A DNA stretch of 64,000 bases from Escherichia phage vB_Eco_BCPEco_001: sequence record PV295200.1. One strand, written 5' to 3'. The stretch's first letter is position 1; every line of letters starts with the position of its first letter. The notes under the pieces were generated by a model. The model was not told the origin of the DNA. It saw only the letters and a program-made list of their open reading frames with translations, and searched no databases. The translations under genes were made by a program, and so were the position numbers. Positions 3,993 to 15,450 of the stretch are shown here, in pieces.

Positions 3993-6900
3993 TTATTCAA
4001 CCCATTCAAATTTAACAGTTTTATTCACTGGGTCAGGAATAATGCGAACATTACCAATTCGTAAGAAATCACGAATAGTAAGATTACCTATTATTCCATT
4101 ATCAGATGGGATTGCTCCTATATCCGAAGGTTGAGGAGGGTTACCTCCGTCAAATACCTGAACAAAACTTGACCAAGAGTTTTTGGTTTTCTGCCATGTA
4201 CGTGTCCAGCGAGTGGTACGTGCTTCTGGAGTTGTTGGATAAGTAATCCAATCTTGATAAAGCGAATCAAGCGTGTTACCAAACTGAGTCAATGTACCAG
4301 GAGATTTAACCTCTTCGCCACGTTCTAAGTATGGAAGTCCAGTCACTTCATTAGTTTTTTCAACCATCTTAAAATAACCTGGGAACTGGTTATAAGTGGC
4401 TGAATCATTAATATCTATTGACCAGAATCCTACAGTATCAGATGTTGGCGCACGAGTATATAAATCAGAGGTTTTAGTACCCTGAGAACGAATTCTCGAG
4501 TTGACAGTTAAACCACCTGAATTTATAGTAGCACCTTTGGCGATGATTAAGCTTTCACCAATCGTTACTTGACCAGATGCATTATTGATAGCTAAAGGAC
4601 GCAATCCATTAAATCCACCAGTCTGATCACCCGATGCAGTAAGCATAAAATGCGTTACTGACCCACCATTGCGAATAAAGAATCCATAATCACCATTTAT
4701 TGCTCTAAAAGCATTCGACGATTTACTGATAATTTCACCAGTTGCAGTGACTGAATTACCAAATGTTGCTACGCCGTTTGCATTCAATGTTCCTGAAGCA
4801 TTAACATTTATCGGTGTTACTGTACCGTTAATATTAAATGTTATATTTCCAGCTTTATTACGCTGAGAATAAAAATGACTAGACGTTTCATCACTAACTT
4901 CAAATACGGTAGAACGTGTTGTGTCTGATTCCCCACTAAATTGATTACCCCACACTCTGACTGTCATCGTTTGAGCAGGGTTTGTTCCAGTTTGAGGTCC
5001 TTTCTCAAAAATCAGACGAGTTGCCGTTCCAGTATTAGAAATAGTTAATGTACTATTTGCTGAAACTGATCCACCGAATGTAGCAGTACTAGATGATACA
5101 AGAGGGGCACTCAGATTCGTTTGTTGGGTTAAGGTTAGTGAACCATTAACTGTTTGTGCAATGTCCCTACGAATGAACTGGAGCGAATCTAGACCATCTA
5201 ATAAATTACTATCTACAGCTTTTGCTTTTAATGGCAAATAATTTGCTAATACGCGATTTAATTCATATGGTGATACTGCATAACCATTTTTCTCATATGA
5301 TTCTAATGGCTGTGTTGAACCTACCGTATCATTACCAACGAATGTAATTGAACCAGATGAAGTTTTAACAAAGCCTCTTATTGCAGTAGTAGCTGCCCAA
5401 GTAGGTTCACTCTGCACAATCCATTTTAAATTTTTTGGAGATACAGCAGTATTTGCTGATGTTCCAGTCACAGTTTCAGACTGAGTTGCAACTTTAATAA
5501 CACCTTCCTGTGCTTCAGTAGATTTAGTACCTAAAAGCTTTTTAGGAGTTATTAAAACATTATCTAATGTTCCTGCAGCAGCTTCAACTTGTGTAGCTAC
5601 ACGAAGTGTACCACGCTGTGTCTCATTTGCTTCAAGAATATTAAGTGTATAATGGTCCCAGAGAGTTCCTGATTCAACTAATCCAGATAGAGCAACAACA
5701 GAAGTACGATCAGTACTATTAAATCTAGTTTTAATTTTTAATGGTGTAGAGATACGAGTATCGTCGACGCCTGCGTCGAATTCAACCTGTGTAGCAATTT
5801 CAGCTATACCACTTAAACTTTCAGTTGCTCTACGGTCATTTAAAGTTTTAGGAGTGACTGCACGAGTATAGTCAGTTCCTGTATTAACTTCACTTTGCGT
5901 AGCAATTTCAATTAAACCAATTCTTCCATCAGTTGATGTCTTTTTATGTAACGTTTCTGGCGTTACAACCGCATTTGCCCATCCTTCTTGGCTTTGTCCA
6001 GCAATTACTTCACTTTCAACTGCTAAAATTACTGCGCCTTGTTGCGTTGGAGTAGCTTTATACTGATCCAAAGCTTTAGGTGAAACAACTAAATTATTAG
6101 TGTTTTTATTATAAACATTCGTACCATTTAATTCACGGCTAGAAGCTGGAGTAGCTCCTGCAGTAGATACATAAGTTACAATACCAGATAATGATTCAGA
6201 ACCTTGGCGAGCTTGAAGCTTTTTAGGAGTGATGATTGTAGTATCATCAGTACCTGTATTAGTTTCCTGCTGCGTAGCAATTTCAGCGACACCTCTACGA
6301 GTTTCTGTAGCAGTTCTTTCATTCAGCTTTTTAGGAGTGATGATAAGGTCATCTGCAAAAGAGAATGTGGTGTTCTGATTCACTTGAGCAGTAGTTGCTA
6401 TTCTTGCAATACCTCTGCGAGTTTCTGTAGCAGTACGATTAGCTAACGTTTCTGGAGTAATTGCTAATTCTTTTTGTGGAGAATTTTCTAAATCAGCATT
6501 TGCTTGAGCTTGCGTAGCTAAAGCAATTACGCCTAATCTTGCTCTAGTAGAAGCATTTAAAGAGTCTACTCTTTCTACAGTTGGAACGTTTTGCTGTACA
6601 ACCCAGCATTTTCCATCAGAATCTTCTATATAAGCAAGTTGTAAAACTGGTACATAATTAGTTTCACCGTTAAAAACTAATTCTTGAACTGTTACCCATT
6701 CAGCTTCAGGCGGATATTCTGAACGTTTTGGGAATTGCAGCAATTGAACTGAAGAAGCAATTTTATCTTCACCAGCAGCTTTGATTTTAACTGTTTGTCC
6801 TTTTCTCATGTAATTCATGGAAATTTTAACAGTATCACCAACAGAAATATCAGTCGGAAGCTGAAGTTCAATTGTTTGGGTTGTTCCATTATTCGCGCCA

Positions 6901-12000: not shown

Positions 12001-12069
12001 ATGTTCGCACCTTATATTATGGCAGCAGTTATGTTGGTCTGTTTATACCTTTTGATTAAAGCTTGCTAA
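12001..12069 (+). CDS. possible 22-aa hydrophobic micropeptide
   Basis: MFAPYIMAAVMLVCLYLLIKAC, preceded by GGAGAAAAG; below ORF-track size cutoff. Confidence 0.25.
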   Translation: MFAPYIMAAVMLVCLYLLIKAC

Positions 12070-12080
12070 GGAGAATAAAA

Positions 12081-12323
12081 ATGAGATTACAACGTCAGAG
12101 CATCAAAGATTCAGAAGTTAGAGGTAAATGGTATTTTAATATCATCGGTAAAGATTCTGAGCTTGTTGAAAAAGCTGAACACCTTTTACGTGATATGGGG
12201 TGGGAAGATGAATGTGATGGATGTCCTCTTTATGAAGACGGAGAAAGCGCAGGATTCTGGATTTACCATTCTGACGTCGAGCAGTTTAAAGCTGATTGGA
12301 AAATTGTGAAAAAGTCTGTTTAA
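12081..12323 (+). CDS. hypothetical protein (frd.x-region ORF)
   Basis: ATG 12081 preceded by AAGGAGA; ORF track start 12063 is TTG. Confidence 0.5.
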   Translation: MRLQRQSIKDSEVRGKWYFNIIGKDSELVEKAEHLLRDMGWEDECDGCPLYEDGESAGFWIYHSDVEQFKADWKIVKKSV

Positions 12324-12333
12324 GGAAAATAAT

Positions 12334-13160
<827 letters not shown>

Positions 13161-13180
13161 AATAACGCGTGGCGGAAAAT

Positions 13181-13528
13181 ATGAATTTTAATTATTACCC
13201 TATTCTATTAGAAAAAGACGTGAAACAACCTAAATGGCAGGGTCCTCAGTTTATTAAAGGTGTCTATCAATTAGTAGTTCCTAAAGACAAGATTTATAGC
13301 AGTTGTTTCACTGAATCTGCTTGCAGTATTTTCGGTAATAGTTCTCCGTATTGGAATTTTGACATAAAGCTGGATAGAAATATCGATATTTGGTTGAAAG
13401 CTATGGATATTGGTAATATTACGTTTGATGAGAATAATTATCATATTATTGGTCGCTTTTCCAAACGCGGTAAAGAATTGTATTTCACGCCTGAAATTGA
13501 AAGAAAATTTGATGCTAAACCGTATTGA
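13181..13528 (+). CDS. hypothetical protein; ORF occupying an frd-td intergenic insertion
   Basis: 115 aa from ATG 13181 (119 aa from GTG 13169); no recognisable motif; T4 frd and td overlap directly, so this ORF is extra. Confidence 0.45.
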   Translation: MNFNYYPILLEKDVKQPKWQGPQFIKGVYQLVVPKDKIYSSCFTESACSIFGNSSPYWNFDIKLDRNIDIWLKAMDIGNITFDENNYHIIGRFSKRGKELYFTPEIERKFDAKPY

Positions 13529-13573
13529 TTATTTAGCTTCATAAAATGTATTATAATTTATATAAGGTACTAA

Positions 13574-14122
13574 ATGAAACAATACCAATTTTTAATTAAA
13601 GATATCCTGGAAAATGGCTACGAAACCGATGACCGAACAGGCACAGGAACAATTGCTTTGTTCGGTACTAAATTACGCTGGGATTTAACTAAAGGTTTTC
13701 CTGCAGTAACAACTAAGAAGCTCGCCTGGAAAGCTTGCATTGCTGAGCTAATATGGTTTTTATCGGGAAGCACAAATGTCAATGATTTACGATTAATTCA
13801 GCATGATTCGTTAATCCAAGGCAAAACAGTCTGGGATGAAAATTACGAAAATCAAGCAAAAGATTTAGGATACCATAGCGGTGAACTTGGTCCAATTTAT
13901 GGAAAACAATGGCGCGATTTTGGCGGTGTAGACCAAATTATAGAAGTTGTTGATCGTATTAAAAAATTGCCAAATGATAGACGTCAAATTGTTTCAGCAT
14001 GGAATCCAGCTGAACTCAAGCAGATGGCATTACCGCCTTGTCATATGTTCTATCAGTTTAATGTGCGTAATGGCTATTTGGATTTGCAGTGGTATCAACG
14101 ATCAGTAGATGTTTTCTTGGGT
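13574..14122 (+). CDS. td: thymidylate synthase, exon 1
   Basis: MKQYQFLIKDILENGYETDDRTGTGT...QRSVDVFLG; in-frame TAA at 14123 is the first intron codon. Confidence 0.9.
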
Positions 14123-15138
14123 TAATTGAGGCCTGAGTATAAGGTGACTTATACTTGTAATCTATCTAAACGGGGAACCTCTCTAGTAGACAATCCCGTG
14201 CTAAATTGTAGGACTGCCCTTTAATAAATACTTCTATATTTAAAGAGGTATTTATGAAAAGCGGAATTTATCAGATTAAAAATACTTTAAACAATAAAGT
14301 ATATGTAGGAAGTGCTAAAGATTTTGAAAAGAGATGGAAGAGGCATTTTAAAGATTTAGAAAAAGGATGCCATTCTTCTATAAAGCTTCAGAGGTCTTTT
14401 AACAAACATGGTAATGTGTTTGAATGTTCTATTTTGGAAGAAATTCCATATGAGAAAGATTTGATTATTGAACGAGAAAATTTTTGGATTAAAGAGCTTA
14501 ATTCTAAAATTAATGGATACAATATTGCTGATGCAACGTTTGGTGATACATGTTCTACGCATCCATTAAAAGAAGAAATTATTAAGAAACGTTCTGAAAC
14601 TGTTAAAGCTAAGATGCTTAAACTTGGACCTGATGGTCGGAAAGCTCTTTACAGTAAACCCGGAAGTAAAAACGGGCGTTGGAATCCAGAAACCCATAAG
14701 TTTTGTAAGTGCGGTGTTCGCATACAAACTTCTGCTTATACTTGTAGTAAATGCAGAAATCGTTCAGGTGAAAATAATTCATTCTTTAATCATAAGCATT
14801 CAGACATAACTAAATCTAAAATATCAGAAAAGATGAAAGGTAAAAAGCCTAGTAATATTAAAAAGATTTCATGTGATGGGGTTATTTTTGATTGTGCAGC
14901 AGATGCAGCTAGACATTTTAAAATTTCGTCTGGATTAGTTACTTATCGTGTAAAATCTGATAAATGGAATTGGTTCTACATAAATGCCTAACGACTATCC
15001 CTTTGGGGAGTAGGGTCAAGTGACTCGAAACGATAGACAACTTGCTTTAACAAGTTGGAGATATAGTCTGATCTGCATGGTGACATGCAGCTGGATATAA
15101 TTCCGGGGTAAGATTAACGACCTTATCTGAACATAATG
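14123..15138 (+). mobile_element. group I self-splicing intron in td (1016 nt) carrying homing endonuclease I-TevI
   Basis: Exon ends ...TTGGGT; intron starts TAATTGAGGCCTGAG and ends ...ACATAATG (terminal G); contains conserved core blocks GTAGGGTCAAGTGACTCGAAA and ATATAGTCTGATCTGCATGGTGACATGCAGC. Confidence 0.9.
14254..14991 (+). CDS. I-TevI: intron-encoded GIY-YIG homing endonuclease I-TevI
   Basis: 245-aa ORF MKSGIYQIKNTLNNKVYVGSAKDFEKRWKRH... (GIY-YIG motif); located inside td intron. Confidence 0.9.
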   Translation: MKSGIYQIKNTLNNKVYVGSAKDFEKRWKRHFKDLEKGCHSSIKLQRSFNKHGNVFECSILEEIPYEKDLIIERENFWIKELNSKINGYNIADATFGDTCSTHPLKEEIIKKRSETVKAKMLKLGPDGRKALYSKPGSKNGRWNPETHKFCKCGVRIQTSAYTCSKCRNRSGENNSFFNHKHSDITKSKISEKMKGKKPSNIKKISCDGVIFDCAADAARHFKISSGLVTYRVKSDKWNWFYINA

Positions 15139-15450
15139 CTACCATTTAATATTGCATCATATGCTACGTTAGTTCATATTGTAGCTAAGATGTGTAATCT
15201 TATTCCAGGAGATTTGATATTTTCTGGTGGTAATACTCATATCTATATGAATCACGTAGAACAGTGTAAAGAAATTTTGAGGCGTGAACCTAAAGAGCTT
15301 TGTGAGCTGGTAATAAGTGGTCTACCTTATAAATTCCGATATCTTTCTACTAAAGAACAATTAAAATATGTTCTTAAACTTAGGCCTAAAGATTTCGTTC
15401 TTAACAACTATGTATCTCACCCGCCAATTAAAGGAAAGATGGCGGTATAA
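15139..15450 (+). CDS. td: thymidylate synthase, exon 2
   Basis: LPFNIASYATLVHIVAKMC... continues TS frame; exon1+exon2 = 286 aa as in T4 TS. Confidence 0.9.
   Translation, partial: LPFNIASYATLVHIVAKMCNLIPGDLIFSGGNTHIYMNHVEQCKEILRREPKELCELVISGLPYKFRYLSTKEQLKYVLKLRPKDFVLNNYVSHPPIKGKMAV

Follow-up and report, generated by a model that had tools for sequence, protein, structure and literature searches.

Gene order between frd and td

The subject of this study is td.1, a small gene lying between frd (dihydrofolate reductase) and td (thymidylate synthase) in Escherichia phage vB_Eco_BCPEco_001. We analyzed a 64,000-nucleotide (nt) stretch of that phage's sequence record (PV295200.1), hereafter the window, which over the query is 100% identical to the minus strand of Shigella phage SHFML-11 (KX130861 / NC_030953). 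From the frd stop to the td start there are 413 nt (13161–13573). A preliminary description, made from the sequence alone, had noted a gap of about 410 base pairs (bp) here with an open reading frame (ORF) of 115–119 amino acids, and had taken the ORF for an accessory gene inserted into a conserved operon. The observation holds (the ORF lies at 13169/13181–13528), but its interpretation is largely reversed: the comparisons below suggest that td.1 is the ancestral occupant of this position and that the empty junction of phage T4 is derived. The features of the region are as follows, in window coordinates.

12063–12323: frd.1, assigned by position and by comparison with T4
12334–12579: ORF of 81 amino acids (PHROG 3183) between frd.1 and frd, from the ORF listing and a PHROG match
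12579–13160, plus strand: frd, dihydrofolate reductase, 193 amino acids, from the ORF listing and with the same annotation in the identical record KX130861
13154–13162, plus strand: left copy of the 9-bp direct repeat TAAATGAAA, covering the frd stop codon (13158–13160), from a regular-expression match
13171–13175, plus strand: GGCGG, resembling a Shine–Dalgarno sequence, 5 nt ahead of the td.1 ATG, inferred from reading the sequence
13181–13528, plus strand: td.1 coding sequence, 115 amino acids, PHROG 1928, A type, from the ORF listing, the GenBank T6 annotation and a PHROG match
13529–13573, plus strand: td.1–td spacer of 45 nt, holding the td Shine–Dalgarno sequence AAGG (13564–13567) and a match resembling a MotA box
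13535–13559, plus strand: candidate promoter resembling a MotA box, AGCTTCA-N12-TAATTT, from a relaxed pattern scan
13571–13579, plus strand: right copy of the 9-bp direct repeat TAAATGAAA, covering the td start codon (13574–13576), from a regular-expression match and alignment
13574–14122, plus strand: td exon 1, thymidylate synthase, from the ORF listing, the annotation of matching records and the sequence
14123–15138, plus strand: td group I intron, 1016 nt by the boundaries used, carrying I-TevI
14254–14991, plus strand: intact I-TevI, 245 amino acids, inside the td intron, from the ORF listing and the joined td coding sequence with I-TevI in T4
15139–15450: td exon 2

The intron and exon-2 boundaries were set against what we take to be those of the T4 td intron.

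td.1 is a known gene under tight purifying constraint

td.1 is a genuine protein-coding gene that is already known and annotated. It is named in partial records of T6 (AY262134.2) and T2H (AY262132.2) and also appears as RB32ORF229c; elsewhere it is labelled "hypothetical protein". The window protein is 99% identical to those of T6 and T2H, lies in the same frd–td position and shows no material difference from them, and the window allele is 100% identical to those of RB18 and SHFML-11. A tblastn search found td.1 in 554 phage records, at one place per record, with 362 of these at 90% identity or more. The 64-kb window contains no paralog elsewhere. In the complete T2 record LC348380 the gene is intact (locus positions 921–1268) but unannotated.

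The reading frame runs from an ATG at 13181 to a stop at 13528, giving 115 amino acids, and an in-frame GTG at 13169 would give 119; the protein begins MNFNYYPILLEK. The ATG is the likely start, because GGCGG lies 5 nt before it and the GenBank T6 td.1 uses the same start. However, the metagenomic relative P0002 begins at the GTG position, four codons upstream, so the 119-residue form retains some plausibility.

The preliminary description had named two findings that would overturn it: the same ORF in T4, or no coding signal on closer analysis. The second was not what we saw. Amino acid identity to other genera is 30–66%, and td.1 matches the PHROG 1928 profile, a group of unknown function, over residues 4–111 (E = 1.4e-35). 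We calculated pairwise ratios of nonsynonymous to synonymous substitution (dN/dS) by the Nei–Gojobori method for six alleles (window, T6, T2, T-01, slur04 and Shf125875). The ratios for frd and td exon 1 were drawn from much the same set of genomes, T4 standing in for any that lacked sequence. The values were 0.00–0.07 for td.1, 0.12–0.25 for frd and 0.03–0.11 for td exon 1. td.1 is thus under tighter purifying constraint than either neighbor, and conservation together with dN/dS rules out a chance or non-coding ORF. The literature searched, accessory-gene screens included, held no published function for any td.1 or PHROG 1928 member, and a paper on mobE cites the T6 record without discussing td.1.

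Three junction alleles in Tequatrovirus

As the preliminary description had stated, frd and td overlap in T4. In NC_000866, frd occupies 145109–145690 and td, on that strand as well, ends at 145112, which leaves a 4-nt ATGA overlap. Alignment confirmed that td.1 is absent from this junction. We also ran three family hidden Markov model (HMM) profiles over ORFs translated in six frames from 135 kb of T4. This sequence, 80% of the genome and inclusive of all non-late regions, held no td.1-family member (best E = 0.25). The other finding that could have overturned the preliminary description, the ORF in T4, is therefore also not the case.

The junction is variable among close relatives, again as had been proposed. 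A 1013-nt junction query matched 565 records, 343 of which (about 60%) carry an uninterrupted td.1 allele. In an evenly spread sample of 60 rows, from which we estimated allele shares, about 62% had td.1, about 20% had a different ORF of 68 amino acids (PHROG 9550), and about 7% had the T4-type overlap (T4, SG1 and ECO07P1). Tequatrovirus genomes thus hold only td.1 (the window, T2 and T6), only the 68-residue ORF, or neither. In the 68-residue allele, which is shorter than that of td.1, the ORF overlaps frd on one side and td on the other by stop and start codons. About 138 records, mostly Tequatrovirus, match it at no less than 90% identity (for example, L007 1794–2000 and L008 1797–2003).

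Several further observations concern these alleles. Dhakavirus JS98 carries the 68-residue ORF unannotated (L025 2299–2505). This ORF is 79–82% identical across genera, as conserved as Td, and has distant homologs of about 43% identity in phAPEC8-like phages. The td.1 of Mosigvirus Shf125875 (L013 1201–1548) is 93% identical in protein to Tequatrovirus td.1 and adjoins an frd annotated as Shfl2-like, which suggests that an frd–td.1 segment may have been exchanged between genera by recombination. The td gene is intronless in T2, T-01 and slur04, all of which bear td.1, and in phage Shinka the two td exons lie only about 314 nt apart, separated by what looks like an intron lacking the endonuclease ORF. 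Since the window has both td.1 and the intron, the presence of td.1 and that of the td intron vary independently.

The same slot in other lineages

In every other lineage where we located a member, a td.1-family gene lies directly after frd. Two types can be told apart, the A type to which td.1 belongs and a B type. They are paralogs (hhalign probability 98.3%, E = 1.6e-14), and both match PHROG 1928. The content of the frd–td interval was as follows.

Kanagawavirus (L003): A and B
Jiaodavirus (L004): A only
Klebsiella phage kv_tblp2 (L005): A, B and the 68-residue ORF
Moonvirus (L006): A and B
Metagenomic T4-like contig L010: A, B and an ORF of 69 amino acids
Metagenomic T4-like contig L011: A and B after frd; the contig ends before td
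Edwardsiella phage PEi26 (L012): A and B
Metagenomic T4-like contig L023: an ORF of 113 amino acids, B and an ORF of 70 amino acids
Metagenomic T4-like contig L024: B type only
Yersinia phage phiR1-RT: g236 (B type), adjoining frd g237

The most divergent members detected, P0045 and P0041, are carried by L023 and L024 and are still in the frd–td slot at less than 25% identity. In other genera the genes of the interval are chained by overlaps of 1–26 nt. Cross-genus identity to the window proteins is 46–50% for Frd, 30–66% for the A type, 77–86% for Td exon 1 and 79–82% for the 68-residue ORF. The divergence of td.1 is roughly in step with that of Frd, as expected of a vertically inherited resident.

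B-type paralogs such as those of Kanagawavirus, Moonvirus and phiR1-RT (g236) resemble td.1 in having Q-K-K-W near the N-terminus and a G-R-F-x-K-x-G-S-E hairpin near the C-terminus. Unlike td.1, they have some 20 additional residues (P-T-I-x-x-Y-K-R-N-P) beyond the conserved tryptophan. They are only 17–30% identical to td.1 and are absent from Tequatrovirus.

On L023, td is split (4567–6443) and an ORF of 260 amino acids resembling the GIY-YIG endonuclease I-TevI lies between its halves. Another record, L018 (OR941409.1, 100 kb), has a fragmented td and inverted pieces of nrdA and looks rearranged or misassembled. In its P0012, a protein of 195 amino acids, the final 35 residues of a td.1 from a Klebsiella phage follow an N-terminal portion of unrelated sequence; the protein was set aside as the product of a scrambled-looking contig.

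Probable deletion in T4 rather than insertion in the window

The 9-bp repeat TAAATGAAA occurs twice in the td.1 allele, and T4 keeps one copy, at the frd/td overlap. In the alignment T4 lacks exactly 417 bp, that is, one copy of the repeat and everything between the copies. By a simple base-composition estimate, 9 bp of microhomology would fall at a deletion junction by chance with a probability of about 1e-5. Deletions between short direct repeats are a classical class of spontaneous deletion in T4, known from studies of rII. The T4 frd/td state resembles those deletions in the loss of one repeat copy with the intervening DNA. It differs in that the event is inferred from comparative sequence and that its product is a working ATGA overlap between the genes of two enzymes.

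The distribution among outgroups and the anatomy of the junction therefore argue for a deletion in T4 and not an insertion here. On these comparisons, td.1 would be ancestral at the frd–td position and the T4 state, with nothing between the genes, would be derived. Slipped mispairing or microhomology-mediated deletion between the TAAATGAAA copies would have removed the 417 bp and created the T4 overlap. The wider arrangement, as it appears in other lineages, would have been frd, an A-type td.1, a B-type paralog, the 68-residue ORF and td, usually with overlapping stop and start codons. The interval may then have been reduced in series, from A, B and the 68-residue ORF to A and B, then to either A or the 68-residue ORF, and finally to nothing. 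The 68-residue allele could also yield the T4 state, because it is flanked by a shorter repeat, AATGA.

The opposite polarity would make td.1 a recent arrival, either a mobile cassette or the degenerate gene of a free-standing homing endonuclease. This was the view of the preliminary description, which had suggested a remnant of a homing element, and we regard it as extremely unlikely. The direct repeat around the 417-bp segment can be read as a target-site duplication, although it is equally the signature of a repeat-mediated deletion. The segment is low in GC (0.29–0.31, versus 0.39–0.43 for frd and td), and free-standing endonuclease genes, mobE and segG among them, are indeed found next to conserved genes on both sides in T4-like phages. 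Like these seg and mob genes and I-TevI, td.1 is a small gene between or within conserved nucleotide-metabolism genes and is variably present among close relatives. Unlike them, it has no GIY-YIG or HNH motif and no DNA-binding domain, and it is a third to half their size.

Other evidence is difficult to square with an insertion. No GIY-YIG, HNH or other nuclease motif was found in td.1 or in any of 46 family members, Pfam gave no match even at E = 10, and the family conserves no histidine, aspartate or cysteine. Its members are full-length proteins. Homologs fill the same slot in many genera, td.1 is single-copy (554 places in 554 records), and purifying selection is strong over its whole length. 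The segment has no transposase, and the only inverted repeat near its ends is a 9-nt pair made of A and T only, which we judged to be at chance level. A sporadic distribution of the homing type was not found: td.1 varies within Tequatrovirus, but the family is fixed in its slot across genera with divergence that tracks that of Frd, and there is one probable cross-genus exchange. The distribution thus looks vertical and syntenic. On sequence grounds, a homing-endonuclease remnant is effectively excluded. Some GenBank records, from BASEL-collection phages and from Klebsiella phage ValerieMcCarty04, do call td.1 homologs "putative homing endonuclease" (MZ501046, MZ501113, MZ501089 and OR271596); nothing in the sequence bears this label out, and we rejected it.

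Two considerations temper the case for deletion in T4. The 9-bp flanking duplication is compatible with either polarity, as noted, and polarity was assigned from the outgroup distribution. On this assignment, the overlap of frd and td that textbooks show for T4 seems to be a secondary product of deletion. It occurs in a small minority of Tequatrovirus genomes, about 7% of the spread sample, and T4 would be a reduced rather than a typical representative of this operon.

A small, predicted beta-rich protein family without a recognizable relative

Word-indexed homolog searches yielded few proteins; an exhaustive HMMER search of 1.84 billion representatives told more and returned 38 clusters. The family members are small single-domain proteins of 95–139 amino acids, apart from P0033, a fragment of 37 residues, and P0037, a repetitive protein of 899 residues that we judged to be a spurious match. 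In an alignment of 46 sequences, W19, G91, K95 and G97 are invariant, Q16, G27, Y29, F93 and F102 are nearly invariant, and position 92 is mostly arginine. Lys18 is invariant in an alignment of 7 sequences and nearly invariant in one of 12. The td.1 of the window carries the marks of the family, Trp19 and the hairpin G-R-F-x-K-x-G (Gly91, Phe93, Lys95 and Gly97). Neither the 12- nor the 46-sequence alignment has an invariant or nearly invariant histidine, aspartate or cysteine, a pattern that speaks against an enzyme or metal site. Among acidic residues only Glu107 is conserved, being nearly invariant in the 12-sequence alignment.

AlphaFold2, run with 12 sequences, gave a model of td.1 with a mean predicted local distance difference test score (pLDDT) of 81.3 and a predicted template modeling score (pTM) of 0.76. 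The modeled strands span residues 6–12, 27–34, 48–50, 62–64, 80–82, 86–96 and 99–104, with a single helix at 68–76, and G-R-F-x-K-x-G is at the tip of the last (C-terminal) beta-hairpin. As modeled, Td.1 is a small, soluble, beta-rich domain without candidate catalytic residues.

Searches for relatives returned little. The preliminary description had seen no recognizable motif in the ORF, and indeed no meaningful match to td.1 or the 46 family members came from Pfam, NCBIfam, PADLOC or the PDB sequences; in particular, no PADLOC defense-system protein model matched consistently among the 46. No Foldseek match in the PDB had an E-value under 0.49. The structure matches in BFVD were only uncharacterized proteins from T4-like phages that infect Pectobacterium, Serratia, Erwinia and Aeromonas.

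The weak, non-significant structural matches were mostly oligonucleotide/oligosaccharide-binding (OB) folds, which we take as a hint only. Proteins with this fold (RPA32/RPA14, Stn1/Ten1, Teb1, SSB, S1 and cold-shock domains) are similar in size to td.1, and the predicted strand order of td.1, with its single helix, is compatible with theirs. Td.1 might therefore be an OB-fold-like binder of single-stranded nucleic acid, either a regulator of the frd–td transcript or a replication accessory that binds single-stranded DNA, with A and B forming a heterodimer in the manner of RPA32/RPA14 or Stn1/Ten1. The modeled order of three or four strands, a helix and two or three strands would fit, as would the invariant Lys95, the invariant or nearly invariant Lys18 and the usual arginine at position 92. 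However, Td.1 is about neutral by residue count (16 lysines and arginines versus 14 aspartates and glutamates), and no sequence match to any nucleic-acid-binding family was found. We consider this model-based proposal distinctly improbable.

Possible functions of Td.1

What is new here is interpretive: the derived status of the T4 overlap, the reduction series, and the recognition of a paralogous family that is confined to one slot, more constrained than its enzyme neighbors and without a recognizable fold relative. From the sequence comparisons, it is rather probable that td.1 is a resident ancestral gene, lost in T4, whose product is a dispensable non-catalytic binding protein co-expressed with the enzymes of the thymidylate cycle. 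Td.1 would act by binding and not by catalysis, and would be produced alongside Frd and Td in the prereplicative period. Its partner would be an enzyme of the thymidylate cycle or of deoxynucleoside triphosphate (dNTP) synthesis, or else nucleic acid. Where it is present the gene is useful enough to be strongly conserved, but phages can evidently do without it, given that T4 carries no member of the family.

A physical or functional link of Td.1 to Frd, Td or the dNTP-synthesis complex is more tentative. It is suggested by the exclusive and ancient frd–td position of the family and by the overlapping reading frames in most genera. A more specific version would make the family a structurally new class of non-catalytic partner, with A alone or an A–B heterodimer coupling dihydrofolate reductase (DHFR) and thymidylate synthase (TS) or tethering both to the dNTP-synthesizing complex. 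This version is speculative, and we give it a low probability. If it were true, the td.1 family would do in trans what the fused DHFR-TS of protozoa and plants does in cis, and its exclusive position and translationally coupled frames in most genera would reflect stoichiometric co-assembly.

Several facts weigh against the functional part of our proposal. No experiment or homology assigns a function to td.1. The only evidence for a partner is gene neighborhood, and gene order is conserved throughout the T4-like phages, so this is weak evidence. In Tequatrovirus, td.1 lies 20 nt from frd and 45 nt from td and is not translationally coupled, unlike in other genera. Finally, its loss in T4, in phages with the 68-residue allele and apparently in JS98 indicates that td.1 is not needed for basic growth. 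The only experimental data that we found concern a distant B-type relative, g236 of phiR1-RT: the virion proteome did not contain the protein at a detected level, no domain matched it, and in a toxicity screen in E. coli its relative count of colony-forming units was 0.401 against a cut-off of 0.4, so that it was not followed up as toxic (PMC6893735 supplement).

The preliminary description had also raised the possibility of an anti-defense cargo gene. In this account, td.1 encodes a small early anti-defense or host-takeover protein that binds and neutralizes a host factor, and only phages that encounter the factor retain the gene. The polymorphism of td.1 among close relatives and its absence from T4 would follow, and the presence or absence of the gene does vary within Tequatrovirus. 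The family is also small, non-catalytic, restricted to phages and without a known fold match; several genera carry tandem paralogs, and the Mosigvirus Shf125875 gene, at 93% identity, points to apparent cross-genus exchange. Yet dN/dS is very low, below that of the neighboring enzymes, and cross-genus divergence is no faster than that of Frd. Even at less than 25% identity the family is found only in the frd–td slot, with no movement between variable regions, and we found no link in the literature. Strong purifying selection, fixed synteny and Frd-like divergence argue against a fast-moving cargo gene, and we hold the anti-defense account to be unlikely, though less so than the nucleic-acid binder described above.

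As a gene, td.1 is of little importance, being annotated as a hypothetical protein in hundreds of T-even genomes. It nevertheless represents a phage-only family with no detectable structural relative, kept between two enzymes of the thymidylate cycle through deep divergence and more constrained than both. This constraint and position make td.1 a reasonable and cheap target for functional study in T2 or T6.

Other features of the region

The candidate MotA-box-like promoter in the td.1–td spacer, a relaxed match to the middle-promoter pattern of T4, could give td a promoter of its own in phages that bear td.1. A TATAAT lies 10 nt past the box. The same relaxed pattern matched 13 times on the plus strand and 4 times on the minus strand of the whole window.

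Upstream of frd, the stop of the 81-residue ORF, whose PHROG has no assigned function, overlaps the frd start in the window. Most of this ORF is missing from T4, where a 71-nt gap holds a short remnant of it, so the reduction of T4 extends to both sides of frd.
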